From: an uncultured Gemmatimonadales bacterium
GTDB taxonomy: Bacteria > Gemmatimonadota > Gemmatimonadetes > Gemmatimonadales > GWC2-71-9
NCBI GenBank assembly: GCA_963771275.1
Contig: CAVYSW010000010.1
Span: 32,001-96,000 of the forward strand
Length of the DNA stretch: 64,000 bases
Direction: 5' to 3'
Both the position numbers and the translations under genes were made by a program. Positions 46,820-53,077 of this stretch are shown piece after piece (positions within the stretch are counted from its first letter, which is position 1; every line of letters starts with the position of its first letter). The notes under the pieces were generated by a model. The model saw only the letters and a program-made list of their open reading frames with translations. It was not told the DNA's origin and made no database searches.

Positions 46820-47638
46820 TCAGTAGTAGTGCGCTACCTGCCAGTTCGCGCCGGCGCCGAAGCTCATCGCGAGGTTGTACTTGGCCTCGAACTCGAAGGT
46901 CGATTCCGGATACTGCTTGCCGTGCCAGGCCGGGTCGATGATGTAGTAGCAGTCGTTCGGTTGCTCGCGCACGGCCATTCCTTCCATGATGCGCAGGTGG
47001 AGTCCGGTCACGGGAGGGAGGCTGTTCCCCTCGCCCACGGCGAGCAGCCCGTGCTTGCGGAGGAAGTCGTACCAGATGTAGTCCGGGAACGTCGCGAACC
47101 CCCGCACCGTGAGCCCGCCGCGCGTCCAGAAGTCCCTGAACTGGGAGGGCTGGAGCCCGCGATCCTGCTTGAACAGGTCGACGTACTGCTTGCCCGGCTT
47201 CTCGAGGGCTTCGGCGATCTCGAACTTCTTCCCCTCGCGCCACGATCGCATCATGGTGTAGACCGTGGCCCAGCAGGTCCTGTTGGTCGGCTGGCCAATG
47301 ACCCATTTCTTGCCGGGGACCACGTAGACGAGCTGCTTCGCGGGTGGTGGCGGCGGCGGCGGCGTTGGGGAGGGCGCCGGGGTGTCGTAGTCGTTCAGGC
47401 GCGCCAGGGTCTTGCCGCCGGGATCGACCCGCCCGTCGGGCCACTTGTGGCCAAGGTTGACCGACTGGAAGCGCTTGATGGCGGCGATCGTCTTGCCCCA
47501 GGCGAGGCCGTCCACCTTGAGTGGGATCTGCGGCCCACCCGCATCCACCGGCACCTGGTTGAGCAGCTCTTGGACGGTGGTCGCGTCAGGCTTGGTGTTC
47601 GTCCCGCCCTGGCCGACCGACTTCGAGATGGTCCGCAC
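46820..47638 (-). CDS. Peptidoglycan-binding domain fused to a papain-like cysteine protease
   Basis: VQELLN..VDG..T..AIKRFQ..DGRVDPGGKT; poly-Pro linker; Q...CWA, H and DP catalytic pattern; GGAGG RBS. Confidence 0.8.
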   Translation of the reverse strand: MRTISKSVGQGGTNTKPDATTVQELLNQVPVDAGGPQIPLKVDGLAWGKTIAAIKRFQSVNLGHKWPDGRVDPGGKTLARLNDYDTPAPSPTPPPPPPPAKQLVYVVPGKKWVIGQPTNRTCWATVYTMMRSWREGKKFEIAEALEKPGKQYVDLFKQDRGLQPSQFRDFWTRGGLTVRGFATFPDYIWYDFLRKHGLLAVGEGNSLPPVTGLHLRIMEGMAVREQPNDCYYIIDPAWHGKQYPESTFEFEAKYNLAMSFGAGANWQVAHYY

Positions 47639-47802
47639 GAGCCTTGCCTCCGTCGCCGGCCCACGGTTCGATGGGCCAGCCCGCAGCCGCGCGCGACGTT
47701 GCCGAAAAGTGGACCGAGCTGACCGCTGGGAATGGGTACGTTGCGTCAGAGAGGGCGGTGGGGCAAGGCCGGCCATCGGGGCCCGGCGCGCGGTGCGGCG
47801 GA

Positions 47803-47886
47803 CGGAGGGCGAGGGACTCGAACCCCCAAGGGCTTGCGCCCAGCGGTTTTCAAGACCGCCGCCTTACCAGTTAGGTCTAGCCCTCC
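47803..47886 (-). tRNA. tRNA-Ser(TGA)
   Basis: Acceptor GGAGGGC/GCCCTCC with G73; anticodon arm GCGGT-CTTGAAA-ACCGC; variable arm GGGC-GCAA-GCCC; TTCGAGT loop. Confidence 0.93.
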
Positions 47887-47946: not shown

Positions 47947-50106
47947 CTACAGCTTCTGGAGCAGGGTCTGGAACCGCGGGTCCTCGCGGATGGCGTCCAG
48001 GTCGCTGTCGTGAACCAGCCACTCCCGGTGGCCGAATCCGTTGGCGATCGCCTTGTCGAGGCAGCCGATCGCCTCGTCCCGCATCCCGCCGAGCGAGTAC
48101 ACGCACGCGACGTTGTACAACACGCCCGGATCCGTGGGATCGATGGCGTACGCCCGCCCCACCCAGTCGAGCGCGCGCGCGCGCTCGCCCAGCTGCATCA
48201 GGGCGCCGCCCGCGAGGTACAGCGCCCGGGCGTCGTCGGGGTTCAGCTCGAGGTGCCGCTCGGCCACCTGAAGCCCGCGCCGCAGCACGGCCTTCGCCTC
48301 GTCGCGACGCCCGAGGCTGTTGAGCGGCGTCTGCATCAGGAGCAGGGCCTGGTAATCCTCCGGGCGGACCCGCGAGGCCTCCTCGTACTGCCGCACCGCG
48401 TCCTCCGCCCGCCCCTCCTGAAACAGCGCCCGGGCGTACAGGTAGTGCGCCTCGTAGAGCTTGGGATTCAGGCGGATGGCCGTCTCGAATTCAGGCCGCG
48501 CCTCCTGGTACTGGCGGTTGAGGGCCAGGGCGAACCCGCGGGACGCGTGGGCCTCGGCCAGGTCGGGATCCAGCTCCAGCGCCTGGCGGCTCGCCGAGTC
48601 GGCGCCGTCCAGATTGGCCTTGCTGCCGTCCCAATACATGTAGAGGAAGGCGCAGCAGTCGGCGAGACCGGCGTACGCCAGCCCGAACCGGGGATCGATC
48701 TCGATCGCCCGCTCGAACATCCGGCGCGCGGACTGCATCCCCGTGCGGCGGAACTGGTGAAAGTACTGGCGGCCGCGGAGGTAGTACTCGTAGGCCTGGA
48801 CGTTCTCGGTCGGCACCCGCTCGATGGCGCGCTTCTCGTCCTCGCTCAGCATCACGCGCAGGGCCTTGACGATGTTCTCGGCAATCTCGTCCTGGATGGC
48901 GAACACGTCCTCCAGCTGCCGATCGTACCGCTCGGACCACAGCCGGTAGCCGTCGGCCACGTTGATGAGCTGCGCCGTCACGCGGAGCCGGTCGCCCGCC
49001 TTGCGCACGCTCCCTTCGAGCACGGTCGCGACCTTGAGCTTGCGGCCGATCTCGCCCATGTCCTCGCTCTTGCCCTTGAAGGCGAAGGACGACGTGCGGG
49101 CGGCCACCTGGAGCGCTTGGATCTTGCTCAACGCGTTGATGATCTCCTCGGCGATGCCGTCGCTGAAGTACTCGTTCTCGGCATCGGCGCTCATGTTGAC
49201 GAACGGCAACACGGCAATGGACCGGCTCCTCCCGGACGCCGCGGGCGCGCCGGGCGGCGTCGAGGTTCCGCCGGGCCACGTGAGTGCGTGCGCCAGCTGC
49301 GCCGCGGTCGCGAACCGCGCCTCGGCCACCTTCTCGAGACACGTGAACACCGCGCTCTCGAGCCAGCCCGGGACGTCCTCGCGGTGCTCGTGGATCGGGC
49401 GCGGCGGATCGGTGAACAGCTTCGTGATGATGGCCTGGACCGTGGGGCCGGTGAACGGCGGCGCGCCGGCGACCATCTCGTACAGCATGGCGCCGAGCGA
49501 GTAGATGTCGGTCCGGCCGTCCAGCTCGGGCTCGCCGCTCGCCTGTTCCGGACTCATGTAGGCCGGCGTGCCGACGGCGGTGCCGGTTTGGGTGAGGGTG
49601 TCGGCGGCGGCGGCGGCGCTCACCGCCTTGGCGATCCCGAAGTCGGTGACCATCGCCTCGTCTTCGTGCAGCATGACGTTCTCGGGCTTGATGTCCCGAT
49701 GCACGATCTGTTGACGGTGGGCATAGTCGAGGGCGGACGCCACGCCGCGGGCGAAACGCACGGCATCCTCGAGCGGGAGCCGATGCTCCCGGTCGAGCCG
49801 CTGGCGCAGGGACTCGCCGGGGATGAACGGCATGACGTAGTAGAGCAGGTCGCCGGCCTGACCGGAATCGTAGAGCGGCACGATATGCGGGTGCTGGAGC
49901 CGCGCCGCGATCTGGATCTCCCGCAGGAACCGCTCCGGCCCGAGCGCGACGGCGAGCTGCGGGTGCAGCACCTTGAGCGCGACCGGCCGTCCATGGCGGC
50001 GATCCTGTGCCAGGAACACGGTGGCCATGCCGCCGCGACCCACCTCCCGCTCGATGGTGTAGCGGTCGGCGGTGGACCTGCGGAGCTGGTCGAGGACGTC
50101 CGGCAT
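47947..50106 (-). CDS. Hanks-type Ser/Thr kinase with TolB-like and TPR domains
   Basis: GRGGMA, VALK, HRDIKPEN, DFG and YMSPEQ; SIAVLPF..EGSVR; TPR repeats. Confidence 0.96.
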   Translation of the reverse strand: MPDVLDQLRRSTADRYTIEREVGRGGMATVFLAQDRRHGRPVALKVLHPQLAVALGPERFLREIQIAARLQHPHIVPLYDSGQAGDLLYYVMPFIPGESLRQRLDREHRLPLEDAVRFARGVASALDYAHRQQIVHRDIKPENVMLHEDEAMVTDFGIAKAVSAAAAADTLTQTGTAVGTPAYMSPEQASGEPELDGRTDIYSLGAMLYEMVAGAPPFTGPTVQAIITKLFTDPPRPIHEHREDVPGWLESAVFTCLEKVAEARFATAAQLAHALTWPGGTSTPPGAPAASGRSRSIAVLPFVNMSADAENEYFSDGIAEEIINALSKIQALQVAARTSSFAFKGKSEDMGEIGRKLKVATVLEGSVRKAGDRLRVTAQLINVADGYRLWSERYDRQLEDVFAIQDEIAENIVKALRVMLSEDEKRAIERVPTENVQAYEYYLRGRQYFHQFRRTGMQSARRMFERAIEIDPRFGLAYAGLADCCAFLYMYWDGSKANLDGADSASRQALELDPDLAEAHASRGFALALNRQYQEARPEFETAIRLNPKLYEAHYLYARALFQEGRAEDAVRQYEEASRVRPEDYQALLLMQTPLNSLGRRDEAKAVLRRGLQVAERHLELNPDDARALYLAGGALMQLGERARALDWVGRAYAIDPTDPGVLYNVACVYSLGGMRDEAIGCLDKAIANGFGHREWLVHDSDLDAIREDPRFQTLLQKL

Positions 50107-50115
50107 GAAGGGGGG

Positions 50116-50121
50116 ATTATA
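50116..50121 (-). promoter_or_regulatory. -10 box TATAAT upstream of the kinase gene
   Basis: Perfect TATAAT 9 nt before the ATG; no obvious RBS. Confidence 0.5.
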
Positions 50122-50432
50122 CCCGAGGGAGGACCGGAGCACGAGGGGCGAGGGGGACTGCGCGCGGGGTTTCGCTCATCCTCGCGATCCTCCGATATCA
50201 GGACGGGGCGGTGACCTGCATAGCATGGCCGGGAGAGTGTCCGGCCCCACCGAACGCCTCGCTTGACGTCTCCTCCGTGACCGCCGCCTGCTTGGCCTCA
50301 AGTTCCGCCGCCAGCGCTGGAACGATGACGTTCGCTCCGGCTGTCAGCCGTATCATCGACCTGCGGCGCGGCAGCGCTTGCCGAGTCACGCGTCCTCGCC
50401 TTCGGGTTGCCAGGGCTCGCAGCCGATGAGGT

Positions 50433-50516
50433 GCCGGTGTGGCGAAACCGGCAAACGCGGAGACCCGGTAAGCCTCTGGGCTTCGGCCCTTACCGGTTCG
50501 AATCCGGTCGCCGGCA
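50433..50516 (+). tRNA. Atypical type II tRNA-like gene: Leu-like body with anticodon GGT (Thr)
   Basis: Acceptor GCCGGTG/CGCCGGC with A73; D-arm GCG-AAACCGGCAAA-CGC; anticodon arm GAGAC-CCGGTAA-GCCTC; variable arm GGGC-TTCG-GCCC; T-arm ACCGG-TTCGAAT-CCGGT. Confidence 0.85.
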
Positions 50517-50608
50517 ACCGCCGCACCATGGGCCGAGTTGCATCGGGAGCCTCGCCGAGCGTACACTACCCGAACTTGCCGGGTCTCCGCGTGGCAGGCC
50601 GCCATGCT

Positions 50609-50650
50609 CAACGAGCCGGGGGATCATCTCCTGGCTCGTTGTTCTTCCTT
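50609..50650 (+). terminator. Intrinsic terminator-like hairpin
   Basis: CAACGAGCCGGGGGA / TCTCCTGGCTCGTTG stem followed by TTCTTCCTT. Confidence 0.75.
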
Positions 50651-50780
50651 CGTCGCCACTCGCGGAGCTGCACCGAGCCCGCGAGGTAGACGGCGCCTAC
50701 CACGACACGCCGGAGCAGCACACCCGCGACGCCACCCGGACCGCCACGCTGGAAGCTCGCGCCCTCATCCGGCCCTACGT

Positions 50781-50822
50781 CCCCCCTCTCCGCGAACGCG
50801 GAGAGGGGGCCAGGGGGTGAGG
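50781..50822 (-). repeat. BoxC/REP-like palindromic repeat at the DUF559 3' end
   Basis: Minus strand CCTCACCCCCTGGCCCCCTCTCCGCG-TT-CGCGGAGAGGGGG. Confidence 0.75.
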
Positions 50823-50847
50823 CCAGGCCACGACCCGCCAAGGGACC

Positions 50848-52173
50848 TCACGCCGCGCGCGATCTCCCCCGCCGCACCCCCGCATACACCGGCACCCCGG
50901 CCAGCAGCAACACGCAGCCCCAGAACACCGTGTCTCCCCCTGAGCCGACGATGGCCCAGACCGAGTAGAGCAACGCCAGCAGCGCCACGGCGAGCGCGTT
51001 GGCGAGCTGCGCGCGGCTCAGCCGCTTCCGTTCCCTGAAGTGCATCAGCGCCAGCGCCGCGGTGGAGAACGCGTACGGCACCAGCGTCGTGAGCGTCGCC
51101 AGCAGGATGATGAACGTGAACTCGGCCACCAGGCCCTTGGTGAAGTTCATGCCGACGATCAGCGTCACGAGCACGCTCGAGATGACGAGTGACGCCACGG
51201 GCGTGCCGCGTGCGGACCGGCGGCCGAGCACCGGCGGCAGCACACCGTCCACCGCCGCCGCCAGCGGGAGCTGTCCCTGGAGCAGAATCCAGCCGTTGAG
51301 CGCGCCGAAGCACGAGATCGCCGCGCCGGCCGCGACCGCGTGCGCCGCCCACGGCCCCCACATGCTGCTCGCCGCGTCGGCGAACGGCGCGGTGGACGTC
51401 GCGAGCGTCGCGGACGGAATCACGCCCATCACCGCGACCGTGCCCAAAATGTAGACCGCCGCCGCGAGCACGGTGCCGAGTAGGGTCGCCCGTGGGATCG
51501 TGCGCTCGGGCCGCTCGACCTCGCCCGCGGGAATGGTCGCCGATTCCAGGCCGAGGAACGCCCACAGGGTGAGCGCCGCCGTGGCGGACACGGCGGACAG
51601 CGTGGAGCGCCCGCTCGGGTTGAACGGGGTGAAGTTGTCCCAGTGGATGAAGGCCAGGCCGATGGTGCCCACCGCGACGAGCGGCAGCAGCTTGAGCACG
51701 GTGGTGACCAGCTGCACGCCGCCCGCCTCGCGTACCCCCCGCGCGTTGACCCACGTGAGCAGCCAGATCGCCGCCAGCGCGGCGGCGGCACCCAGGGCCG
51801 GACTCGTCGCCAGCGGCCGCCAGAAGAAGCCCAGGTACCCCACCATGCCGACGGCGATCGCCGCGTTTCCCACACAGGTCGAGATCCAGTAGCCCCACGC
51901 CACCAGGAACCCGGCGAACTCGCCGAAGCCGGCCCGCGTGTACGCATACGGCCCGCCGGCCCTGGGGATCATGCGCGCGAGCCGCGCGAACGCTATCGCG
52001 AGGAGCACGGCGCCGGTCGACGTGAACAGCCAGCCGATGAGGCTGATGCCGCCGTACGGCCCGAGCGAGGCAGGGAGCAGGAAGACCCCCGACCCGATCA
52101 TGTTGCCCACCACCAGGGCCGTGGCCATCCACAGGCCGAGCTTGCGCGATGTGGTCGCGCTCGGGGTGGTCAC
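50848..52173 (-). CDS. APC-family amino acid permease (AdiC/PotE-like)
   Basis: GNMIGSGVFLLP, GGPYAY and WAFLGLESA motifs; about 12 TMs. Confidence 0.93.
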   Translation of the reverse strand: MTTPSATTSRKLGLWMATALVVGNMIGSGVFLLPASLGPYGGISLIGWLFTSTGAVLLAIAFARLARMIPRAGGPYAYTRAGFGEFAGFLVAWGYWISTCVGNAAIAVGMVGYLGFFWRPLATSPALGAAAALAAIWLLTWVNARGVREAGGVQLVTTVLKLLPLVAVGTIGLAFIHWDNFTPFNPSGRSTLSAVSATAALTLWAFLGLESATIPAGEVERPERTIPRATLLGTVLAAAVYILGTVAVMGVIPSATLATSTAPFADAASSMWGPWAAHAVAAGAAISCFGALNGWILLQGQLPLAAAVDGVLPPVLGRRSARGTPVASLVISSVLVTLIVGMNFTKGLVAEFTFIILLATLTTLVPYAFSTAALALMHFRERKRLSRAQLANALAVALLALLYSVWAIVGSGGDTVFWGCVLLLAGVPVYAGVRRGRSRAA

Positions 52174-52180
52174 GGGACGA

Positions 52181-53077
52181 TCACCGGGCGTGCGCCGCGC
52201 CGTCCACCAGGGCCCGCAGCGCGGCGATGTGCGCCGGCGTCGTGCCGCAGCAGCCGCCGATGATCGCGACACCGGCGTCGATCAGTCCGCGCGCCCTGTC
52301 GGCCATGAACGCGGGGGTCTCGTCGTACACGGTGGTGTCGCCCACCATGCGTGGCAGCCCCGCGTTGGGCTGGATGAGGAGCGGGAGCGGCGTGTGCCGG
52401 CGGAACTCCCGCGCGATCGCGACCATGTGCTCGATGCCCGTACCGCAGTTGGAGCCGATCACGTCGGCGCCGGCGTCTGCCAGGCCCGCCGCCGCGGCCG
52501 CGACGCTCACCCCCATGATCGTAAAGTAGCCCCGTGGCGTGGGATCGAACGTCATCGTGGCGAGCACCGGGATCGCCGCGGACACGTCCTTCGCCGCCCG
52601 GATGGCGAGCGTCGCCTCCGCGAGGTCCGTCATCGTCTCGATGCAGACGCAGTCCACGCCGGCCGCGATCAGCGCCGTCATCTGCCGGCGAAAGCCCTCA
52701 TACATGGCGTCCCGGGTCGTGTCGCCGTACGGCTCGAGCAATCGGCCGGACGGTCCGCACGATCCCGCGACGTAGGCCCGATCGCCCGCCACCCGGCGCA
52801 CGGCCGCGACGGCCGAGCGATTGAGCGTCTCCGTCTCGTGCTCCAGGCCGTGGAGCGCGAGCTTGAGCGGCGAGCCGCCGAACGTGTTGGTCTCGAGGAG
52901 GTCGGCCCCGGCGTCGAGGTAGAGCCGCGCGATCTCCTCCAGGACGCCGGGCCGCGACAGCGTGATCGTCTCGGGTGGCTGGCCGGGCTCGAGGCCGCGG
53001 GCCAGGAGCATCGTGCCCATCGCCCCGTCACCCACGAAGCGCTCGCCGGCGGCCAGACGCTCCAGCAGCGGCTGCAC
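52181..53077 (-). CDS. Homocysteine S-methyltransferase domain protein (stand-alone MetH N-domain)
   Basis: DGAMGT, TNTFG, ETM, GSNCG, PNAGLP and GGCCGTTP motifs. Confidence 0.93.
   Translation of the reverse strand: MQPLLERLAAGERFVGDGAMGTMLLARGLEPGQPPETITLSRPGVLEEIARLYLDAGADLLETNTFGGSPLKLALHGLEHETETLNRSAVAAVRRVAGDRAYVAGSCGPSGRLLEPYGDTTRDAMYEGFRRQMTALIAAGVDCVCIETMTDLAEATLAIRAAKDVSAAIPVLATMTFDPTPRGYFTIMGVSVAAAAAGLADAGADVIGSNCGTGIEHMVAIAREFRRHTPLPLLIQPNAGLPRMVGDTTVYDETPAFMADRARGLIDAGVAIIGGCCGTTPAHIAALRALVDGAAHAR

Follow-up and report, generated by a model that had tools for sequence, protein, structure and literature searches.

The type I toxin-antitoxin systems with a non-overlapping antisense gene (tisB/istR-1 and ralR/ralA) and the hok/sok system are among the closest described counterparts of the locus considered here, a tRNA gene accompanied on both sides by sequences antisense to its own 5′ half. 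The locus lies in an uncultured Gemmatimonadales bacterium (assembly GCA_963771275.1), within a stretch of 64,000 nucleotides that is referred to below as the window (contig CAVYSW010000010.1, positions 32,001 to 96,000 of the forward strand) and whose coordinates are used throughout. In these systems, as is proposed for this locus, an adjacent antisense RNA has its own promoter and the target is held by fold-back. Type I antisense RNAs have some 16-20 nt or more of complementarity, and the hok/sok primary transcript is kept inactive by internal fold-back. The available text of the RalA study gives 16 nt for that RNA (PMC4041452). At the present locus the target is a tRNA and not the mRNA of a small toxin: no small toxic protein is encoded, the module contains no conserved open reading frame (ORF), and toxicity is a predicted property. 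A second parallel is provided by the RNA-RNA pairs known as 'type VIII', CreT/CreA and SdsR/RyeA, in which both partners are RNA and translation is affected. CreT sequesters a rare tRNA, whereas here the tRNA itself would do the harm, the antisense RNA would be the antidote, and Cas proteins are not involved. As in type I and type VIII systems, an adjacent antisense gene with promoter and terminator signatures can be recognised, in this case from sequence. A third likeness is to RNA I/RNA II of ColE1, where a free segment makes a loop-first kissing contact that zips to a long duplex, although that pair governs plasmid replication and its target is no tRNA gene.

Natural tRNAs whose body and anticodon disagree have also been described. 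In the parts of the reports available, tRNAProX from Streptomyces and Kitasatospora and the allo-tRNAs from Acidobacteria combine such disagreement with an origin in soil bacteria and, in some cases, a nucleotide other than U at position 33 (PMC11415595, PMC5389517). The family described below differs from both in having a Leu-type body, a 7/5 acceptor/T-stem layout and no dedicated synthetase paralogue, and the dedicated antisense RNA is a new element. Allo-tRNAs are laid out as 8/4 or 9/3 (Mukai et al., 2017; PMC5389517), and the words 'antisense' and 'complementary' are absent from the available text of that paper. An allo-tRNA assignment was accordingly rejected for the window tRNA, which has a 7-bp acceptor stem and a 5-bp T stem supported by covariation. 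Nematode nev-tRNAs resemble the family in joining a class II long variable arm to an anticodon for another amino acid; as far as the available text goes, they carry Gly or Ile anticodons and are charged with leucine in vitro, and they differ in being eukaryotic and without a described antisense partner (PMC3333845). In the literature covered, which leaves most subscription journals outside, we found neither a tRNA that has an antisense RNA dedicated to it nor a small RNA that targets a tRNA anticodon arm.

Comparison with homologues indicates that the window tRNA is one of 98 distinct copies from Gemmatimonadales genomes and metagenomes. It is very probable that an antisense RNA controls this tRNA. 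The antisense copy downstream of it is most likely a separate, trans-acting small RNA and, to judge from the alignments, is an inverted and diverged copy of the tRNA 5′ half. We lean slightly towards the fuller statement, that the small RNA and the leader form an RNA-only lock which keeps a misaimed Leu-type tRNA from translation in a toxin-antitoxin-like manner. That the tRNA acts as a mistranslating toxin is plausible, but we regard it as somewhat doubtful. What emerges from comparison of homologues is the fold, the existence of a family, covariation, and signatures of a promoter and a terminator; together these delimit what would be a self-contained module, about 300 bp in length (50351-50651) and made up of three elements, namely the tRNA, its leader and the small RNA. 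Its features are as follows.

50351-50356, plus strand: TATCAT, a -10-like box in the presumed promoter P1 of the tRNA (inferred), with a start near 50362.
50362-50367, plus strand: 5′ strand of the leader-trailer helix, UGCGGC, with its partner at 50520-50525 (alignment A3).
50377-50393, plus strand: leader element antisense to the D-stem 3′ strand, anticodon-stem 5′ strand and anticodon loop (repeat D1, RNAalifold).
50407-50424, plus strand: leader segment able to pair with the D arm and 5′ acceptor strand (RNAalifold, pair counts).
50430-50432, plus strand: GGU, with the option of pairing with A73-C74-C75 to extend the acceptor stem to 10 bp (alignment).
50433-50516, plus strand: class II tRNA with Leu-type body, A73 and anticodon GGU at 50467-50469 (ARAGORN, Rfam, class II alignment).
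50517-50525, plus strand: A-CC, then GCCGCA, the 3′ strand of the leader-trailer helix (alignment, RNAalifold).
50538-50567, plus strand: presumed promoter P2, TTGCAT (50538-50543), 18 nt, TACACT (50562-50567) (family-wide conservation).
50574-50608, plus strand: antisense part of the small RNA, of which 50574-50592 pairs with the anticodon loop and 5′ stem and the remainder with the D arm and 5′ acceptor strand (repeats, duplex prediction, covariation).
50609-50651, plus strand: intrinsic-terminator-like hairpin of 15 pairs followed by a T-rich run (terminator scan of 50609-50641 plus T-run; one found, 0.1 expected).

The original prediction, made from the sequence of the window without database searches, had started from an 18-nt inverted repeat between the tRNA (50455-50472) and the sequence downstream of it (50575-50592), and this repeat is present with 17 of 18 positions complementary. 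A chance origin was ruled out, in that none of 300 dinucleotide-preserving shuffles of 50300-50700 yielded an 18-nt inverted repeat with one mismatch or fewer. It had further been proposed that the pairing extends into an imperfect rod. The segment 3′ of 50574 does complement tRNA positions 4-40, beyond the anticodon arm and including the pairing GTGTGGCG/CGCCATGC; the other short pairings that had been listed with it (TTCGGC/GCCGAG, GGTTC/GAGCC and GCAAC/GTTGC) fall within the presumed promoter spacer. Folding of 50370-50615 pairs both arms with an energy modestly better than that of shuffled sequences (z -2.3; 2 of 200 shuffles as good), and the reverse strand of the same region gives z -1.85. 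A third motif, at 50489-50496, had been put forward as complementary to the anticodon loop. It does pair at 8 of 8 positions in the window, but across the family the mean is 6.26 of 8 for cognate and 6.31 for non-cognate combinations (n = 98), and the motif is itself part of the tRNA, where it belongs to the 5′ strand of the T stem; on these comparisons we take its complementarity to be incidental.

The extent of the family was assessed with a covariance model, R1, built from 21 members. This genome has five copies, the other four (C3:117494, C3:143437, C3:1869917 and C9:161275) having CGC or GGC anticodons. R1 scores the five at 82.6-101 bits and the genuine tRNA-Leu genes of the genome, which are its next-best matches, at 55.6-71.8 bits. 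In other genomes genuine tRNA-Leu reaches 89 bits, so the bit score fails to separate it there, and members were classified by anticodon and antisense instead; for the same reason the tallies of 85/151 genomes in the order and 93/151 in the phylum (E <= 1e-13) are upper bounds. Classification of 101 R1 matches by anticodon, with duplicates removed, gave 52 distinct members with non-Leu anticodons (cgc 19, cac 12, ggc 8, ggt 4, gac 3, gtc 2, ctc 2, ttc 1, agc 1) and 41 genuine tRNA-Leu genes (taa, caa, cag), a filter having excluded from the count long tRNAs lacking a Leu-type D-arm motif or a recognisable T loop. Verified members occur, by hand count, in at least 29 of the 151 sampled genomes of the order (coded families f1, 14; f3, 12; f2, 3), and the best R1 matches at 11 loci checked outside the order were all genuine tRNA-Leu. 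Related loci are assigned to Gemmatimonadales metagenome-assembled genomes. In a search with the leader pattern, 12 of 14 matching stretches hold such a tRNA, and the two that do not, labelled Rhodothermales and Chloroflexota, are apparent chance matches. Metagenome contigs with the leader motif contributed 70 loci, 63 with a long tRNA and one without a T-loop pattern, from which deduplication left 46 further distinct members, all with non-Leu anticodons; the 70 contigs are all longer than 1 kb and none hints at transcript ends. Across all 98 members the anticodons are for Ala, Val, Asp, Glu or Thr and never for Leu. One row (L023) comes from an unpublished genome (G020), and no claim depends on it alone.

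Antisense matches were sought by comparing tRNA positions 27-40 (14 nt) with the 130 nt that follow the tRNA, G.U being accepted as a pair. Scores of 12/14 or more were reached in 47 of the 51 testable genome members and 42 of the 46 metagenome members, compared with 2 of the 41 genuine tRNA-Leu genes, whose best scores were 12 in those two and 8-11 in the other 39, with no perfect match. When all ARAGORN tRNAs of this genome were ranked by the same score, four of the five family members came top, the fifth (C3:143437, L003) scoring 9/14; this copy has an acceptor mismatch and an altered T loop and looks decayed from its sequence. Seven of the nine low scorers in the family could be accounted for. 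Three of them (L071 and the two copies of L105, all in genome G107) have the antisense gene upstream of the tRNA, one (L114) pairs with a gap, and three (L188, L220 and L226) reach 11/14, the two of these that were checked, L188 and L220, forming long duplexes. In total 96 of the 98 members have antisense to their own anticodon arm, and an intact tRNA without a small RNA is found once (L195). In genome G107 (L105 on C89, L071 on C104) two modules stand in tandem about 540 nt apart, and two modules about 660 nt apart are likewise seen in another genome (G119; L088, C7).

The match is specific to each copy. The arms vary widely between copies, and the cognate small RNA is the best or tied-best partner in 46 of 51 cases. 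Among the 92 members scoring at least 11/14, anticodon positions 34, 35 and 36 are Watson-Crick paired in 91, 92 and 89, the remainder being G.U and none mismatched, and this pairing is kept though position 34 may be C, G, U or A and position 35 G, A or U. The rows are related and hence not independent, and a tree-based test of independent pairs was therefore used, on a quick maximum-likelihood tree of 90 rows built from the module minus the tested columns. The minimum number of anticodon changes on this tree is 43, against a mean of 53.5 with shuffled labels. On supported branches the partner co-changes in 8 of 8 independent pairs at position 35 (p 0.008), 5 of 5 at position 34, 6 of 6 at position 30 and 7.5 of 9 at position 33, with none in the opposite direction at the last. 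At position 36 the partner often remains G opposite U (3 of 4 pairs), as it does in the window copy. The comparison with homologues by which the original prediction proposed to judge the anticodon-arm/trailer pairing thus comes out in its favour, the complementarity being maintained by co-variation.

This pattern bears directly on explanations at the level of DNA, in which the repeats would be protein binding sites (an alternative that the original prediction had itself raised for the three motif copies), arms of a recombination hairpin or cruciform, or remnants of an integrative element at a tRNA gene. Where inverted repeats surround a tRNA gene they are often the sign of an integration site, and a palindrome, CTCGGC...GCCGAG, is present in the P2 spacer of 21 of 92 members. 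Nevertheless, the repeats differ from copy to copy and co-vary, which is a poor fit to a protein site, and their imperfect positions are more often G.U than A.C in a count biased by the scoring. An attachment site was rejected on the grounds that the repeat is inverted and lies over the tRNA 5′ half, with no direct copy of the 3′ part, and that no integrase domain occurs among the neighbours examined. Moreover, complementarity survives permuted gene order and altered spacing, and the downstream copy is framed by promoter and terminator signatures. We consider a role of this kind very improbable. The spacer palindrome, of which both halves were seen in those 21 members, could, as far as its sequence allows, act as an operator or fold into a hairpin in read-through transcripts; a perfect inverted repeat of at least 6 nt is found in the P2 spacer of 38 of 92 members and in 9 of 92 shuffles.

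The original prediction treated the downstream copy as a trailer of the tRNA transcript, and this part of it is not borne out: the copy has its own sigma-70-like -10 box 6-7 nt before its start and a terminator at its end, and in some genomes the unit lies upstream of the tRNA. A TTG-N17/18-TAnnnT arrangement precedes the antisense segment in 35 of 47 members, and in 27 of those 35 the -10 box ends exactly 6 nt before it. The other 12 members have TTGAC and variant -10 boxes such as GATGTT or CATACT. Shuffled sequences yield the signature in 0.17 of 47 cases, and it occurs downstream of 2 of the 41 genuine tRNA-Leu genes. In an alignment of 20 rows (A1), three columns alone are invariant in the spacer between tRNA and antisense: one T within the TTG at -35 and, in the -10 box, the A and the last T. 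In the window the placement of TTGCAT and TACACT predicts a start at A50574. At the other end, a hairpin and T-run lie 3′ of the antisense in 88 of 92 members under a test too lenient to separate the strands, which returns 64 for the reverse complement and 23 for shuffles; the implied small RNA has a median length of 76 nt. In the permuted modules of genome G107 the small-RNA gene, with promoter and terminator, is upstream of the tRNA, and the terminator lies between the two. It is because of the conserved -10 box, the terminator and the upstream position in some genomes that we read the copy as a separate antisense small RNA. Folded alone, this RNA is predicted to have its first 7 nt free, followed by a hairpin (50589-50607) and the terminator. 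Duplexes of 32-43 bp are predicted between each small RNA and roughly positions 3-48 of its tRNA, a span that takes in the D arm and the 5′ acceptor strand, and co-folding of the window pair gives a binding gain of -21.3 kcal/mol.

The leader appears to constitute a second antisense layer. A TAnnnT-type box is found at the position of P1 in most aligned homologues, a few nucleotides before a conserved GCGGC, although the window copy has no good -35 box at the standard spacing. The original prediction had described a degenerate direct repeat of the antisense in the leader; 50377-50387 does match 50575-50585 at 10 of 11 positions, but it tracks the anticodon arm just loosely, being best or tied for its own tRNA in 7 of 51 members. 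RNAalifold was applied to 17 aligned precursors, each running from 85 nt upstream of the tRNA to 12 nt past A73, and the consensus is not a cloverleaf: the leader pairs with the tRNA 5′ half, and the leader 5′ end is clamped to the sequence after ACC. The leader forms 15 pairs with the anticodon arm and D 3′ strand (89.4% paired, 7 double-side changes), 11 pairs with the D arm in helix 5 (96.8%, 2 double changes) and 4 pairs in helix 6 (95.6%). In the clamp, columns 20-23 and 181-184 of alignment A3 are paired in 97.1% of cells, with one pair changed from GC to AU in 4 of 17 rows. Inspection by eye gives GCCAG/CTGGC, GCGAG/CTCGC and GGCTGG/CCAGCC for the leader-trailer helix of other subfamilies; an automated 6-mer test of this helix discriminates poorly.

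The cloverleaf is supported too. In 21 aligned homologues 97.7% of its cells are paired and 14 pairs show double changes, none of 500 shuffles being equal, and the covariation extends to both the 7-bp acceptor and the 5-bp T stem. On the same 17-row alignment that gave the rod, the cloverleaf is 98.7% paired and all five anticodon-stem pairs show double changes. The covariation scores of both folds exceed 500 of 500 shuffles and every slid control, with the caveats that the alignment rows are related and that the structure of the rod was derived from that same alignment. The two folds are mutually exclusive and each shows covariation, and selection therefore seems, on this comparative evidence, to keep both. 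This agrees with the proposal in the original prediction that the precursor can fold in two ways, here as a cloverleaf or by pairing of the leader with the tRNA 5′ half, each with compensatory changes in the 17 aligned homologues. For the window precursor the minimum free energy is -84.2 kcal/mol in the sequestered form and -70.5 with the cloverleaf enforced. The most cautious reading of the locus would be that a conserved precursor tRNA has two competing folds under selection, itself rare and well-supported comparative evidence for a tRNA-based RNA switch.

An alternative is that the molecule is a tRNA-like RNA that acts off the ribosome, as a donor or decoy that engages a tRNA-dependent enzyme or anticodon nuclease, or as a sponge for a small RNA that is the real effector. 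Spacers of tRNA precursors do act as small-RNA sponges in E. coli. The acceptor end also has an unusual form. GGT occupies positions -3 to -1 in 40 of 52 family members and in 3 of 41 genuine tRNA-Leu genes, and pairs between GGU and A73-C74-C75 are formed in 18-19 of 21 rows; such a closed, extended acceptor end, together with the leader-trailer clamp, would hinder normal end processing. Against this stand the invariance, across aligned members, of all the core tRNA features needed for the L shape, and anticodons that are non-random and read abundant codons. In addition, the 5′ 'seed' of the small RNA follows its own tRNA copy by copy, which leaves no room for a conserved outside target. We think an off-ribosome role improbable. 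In the window copy, alone of the 21 aligned, A73 is separated from the conserved CC by an additional A (50516-50519; GCA-ACC in place of GCA-CC).

The window tRNA matches Rfam RF00005 at 45.1 bits (gathering score 29; 50433-50516), the sole Rfam match at E <= 1 in 49500-51500, and ARAGORN calls it tRNA-Thr(GGT) at 50432-50519. A T-box leader, which has a specifier loop and an antiterminator with a UGGN bulge and precedes an mRNA, was rejected on the same scan, the only match being to tRNA, and on the lack of a downstream coding gene on this strand. The variable arm of the tRNA is long (GGGC-UUCG-GCCC) and its D stem has 3 bp; the tRNA has A73 and the 7/5 layout, and is 58-64% identical to the tRNA-Leu genes of its own genome, with which it has a Leu-type D arm in common, as against 43-55% for tRNA-Ser and 53% for tRNA-Tyr. 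We take a class II long variable arm, a Leu-type D arm and A73 to be features of Leu identity, and A73 is present in 98 of 98 members. The GGU (Thr) anticodon does not conform to a Leu anticodon (NAG or YAA). The sequence is that of a candidate mis-decoder, as the original prediction had supposed, with a Leu-type body, a non-Leu anticodon and putative charging with leucine. Its anticodon loop is CCGGUAA, with C33 in place of U33, and 50463/50473 of the anticodon stem are mismatched as A.C. Four DNA runs were compared and gave one strain variant, 99% alike (run X1), with T for C at 50473, which restores an A-U pair; the same variant also differs at 50553 and 50644.

The synthetases bear on the putative charging with leucine. 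Bacterial leucyl-tRNA synthetase (LeuRS) does not read the anticodon; the genome has one LeuRS gene, and no second LeuRS was found in it. The codons of the family anticodons are common in long ORFs (GCG rank 1, GCC 2, GUG 5, GAG 6, GAC 7, GUC 13 and ACC 18), and ordinary tRNAs for the family-read codons are already present. Most members carry the label of tRNA-Ala, and 41 of the 98 have Ala anticodons. G3:U70 is the mark of an Ala acceptor, and it occurs in 1 of 98 members, on which count a tRNA-Ala identity was rejected. Threonine is a closer question for the window copy. The Thr identity set, which we take to be G1-C72, C2-G71, G35, U36 and a class I body, fits it in the anticodon and the first two acceptor pairs, G1-C72 and C2-G71 (both present in 91 of 98 members); its body is class II, unlike the tRNA-Thr(GGU) of the genome.

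Such considerations enter a reading in which antisense control is retained but there is no toxin: the tRNA would be a dosed, conditional decoder for adaptive low-level mistranslation, or would be correctly charged by anticodon-reading synthetases, with the antisense tuning its level. The Val, Thr, Asp and Glu synthetases read anticodons, so that, given its GGU anticodon and first two acceptor pairs, charging by anticodon might apply to the window copy. The C33 of a third of members (17/52, compared with 0/41 genuine tRNA-Leu) would damp decoding, as non-U33 appears to do in natural mistranslating tRNAs in the available text of PMC11415595. Housekeeping contexts and one orthologue that is syntenic on the permease side (in genome G006, where the module is kept next to the permease) look like vertical inheritance and not addiction. 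Conversely, the known rule excludes members with Ala anticodons as Ala acceptors, ordinary tRNAs for the codons concerned are present in the genome, and two antisense layers combined with one unguarded intact tRNA among 98 suggest that free tRNA is costly. On balance we judge a non-toxic role unlikely, though less so than an off-ribosome one.

The reading that we prefer, an RNA-only lock on a misaimed tRNA, can be set out as a sequence of proposed steps, in which transcription, duplex formation in cells, charging with leucine, toxicity and the trigger of release are what we infer. The leader, about 70 nt long and a loose antisense of the tRNA 5′ half, would fold back to make the precursor a rod in place of a cloverleaf, its 5′ end being clamped to the sequence just past the tRNA, and would thereby slow maturation in cis. 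The small RNA, about 76 nt, would present a free 5′ end to the anticodon loop, and its next ~30 nt would be directed against the anticodon stem, the D arm and the 5′ acceptor strand; it would dock at the anticodon loop and zip to a duplex of 32-43 bp, unfolding or blocking the tRNA and probably opening it to a double-strand RNase. Loss of the small RNA would allow maturation of the stable tRNA and its charging by the one LeuRS of the cell, and leucine would then be inserted at GCG, GCC, GUG, GAC, GAG and ACC codons, causing proteome-wide mistranslation. A stop in transcription, for example during phage attack or stress, would in this way free the stable tRNA and scramble the proteome. Variation in the anticodon arm would keep the several copies of a genome mutually orthogonal.

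The toxin-antitoxin logic would fit best with this combination: an RNA that is putatively stable and harmful has an antisense RNA dedicated to it and would be inhibited by fold-back, a genome may hold several copies orthogonal to one another, and a tRNA is hardly ever seen unguarded. It may be that this represents a new all-RNA class of toxin-antitoxin system, in which a tRNA is the toxin against the commonest Ala, Val, Asp, Glu and Thr codons and is restrained by its leader and a labile, copy-specific anti-tRNA small RNA, but we offer this as a tentative proposal, held with still less assurance than the toxicity itself. If correct, it would mean that bacteria keep code-breaking tRNAs policed by dedicated antisense RNAs, and a tRNA would join the list of toxins. 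The small RNA would be the first known to us with a tRNA anticodon arm as its natural target, and the tRNAs would be the third natural mis-decoding family in soil bacteria. How cells tolerate or exploit regulated mistranslation would become testable, and a module of ~300 bp with its own control parts and around 100 natural, matched guide/target variants could serve as a source of orthogonal switches for engineered tRNAs.

Several observations weigh against the locked-toxin interpretation. Some members, perhaps including the window GGU copy with its G1-C72/C2-G71 pairs, could be correctly charged and harmless, and the C33 and A.C anticodon-stem mismatch of the window copy may mark a weak or decaying tRNA. 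Among the sequencing runs listed as containing 50300-50700 there is no RNA run. No conserved protein partner was found among 34 neighbouring ORFs at 10 loci or in the window, housekeeping genes (tig-clpP-clpX, aminotransferases, glycosidases) make up most of the neighbours at the 10 other loci, no clear defence island was seen at the loci examined, and no viral contigs matched two exact patterns. In an ungapped test the leader is best or tied for its own tRNA in 7 of 51 members, with a mean of 9.55 of 12 against 8.86 for non-cognate tRNAs. The tRNA alone is likewise predicted off the cloverleaf (-39.5 versus -33.6 kcal/mol), such energies being unreliable for tRNAs. The count of imperfect positions in the antisense pairing (G.U 44, A.C 24) comes from a test biased by scoring and relatedness. 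Lastly, the P2 hexamers match 7 of 12 consensus positions by our own count, and a strict consensus promoter scan finds no site in the window copy, so the promoter reading rests on family-wide conservation. Overall, the original interpretation of the locus is partly supported.

The module lies in a 700-bp intergenic gap of the window, between two genes.

47947-50142, minus strand: divergent Ser/Thr kinase with TPR repeats, one flank of the gap.
50848-52272, minus strand: amino-acid permease, the other flank.

A Ser/Thr kinase adjoins the module in the window and at 2 of 10 other loci (L055, L056); these genomes have very many kinase paralogues, and given this the adjacency may be chance. A search for an empty site led, in genome G004, to the kinase orthologue followed by unrelated DNA, and no clean empty site was found. 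Genes of toxin-antitoxin type (PIN, HepT/MNT, Uma2) are scattered near modules. ORFs that overlap the module have no Pfam match, and conservation follows base pairs and not reading frame. The paralogue C3:1869917 (L054; C3:1865000-1875000) stands directly upstream of tig-clpP-clpX, and on its other side about 5 kb to the contig end contain no ORF of at least 110 aa with high GC3.

Some further tRNA-like sequences in this genome deserve mention. ARAGORN reports about nine long 'tRNAs' of 83-98 nt outside the window, on contigs C1, C3, C6, C8, C9 and C10 (Arg gcg, Cys gca, Gln ctg and others); neither a T loop nor a D-arm motif could be seen in them by eye, and they probably represent false calls caused by GC-rich DNA. 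The only tRNA-Ser(UGA) gene of the genome, at 47803-47886 of the window (minus strand), has an odd D arm, CTAGACCTAACTGGTAAGGC, and variable and T arms similar to those found among the Leu-like tRNAs; its R1 score is 63.3 bits, and over 61 nt it is 80% identical to a family tRNA of genome G004. Adjoining this gene is an ORF of 318 aa (46820-47776, minus strand) that matches Peptidase_C70, the AvrRpt2-like papain-type protease family, with E 1.9e-09.

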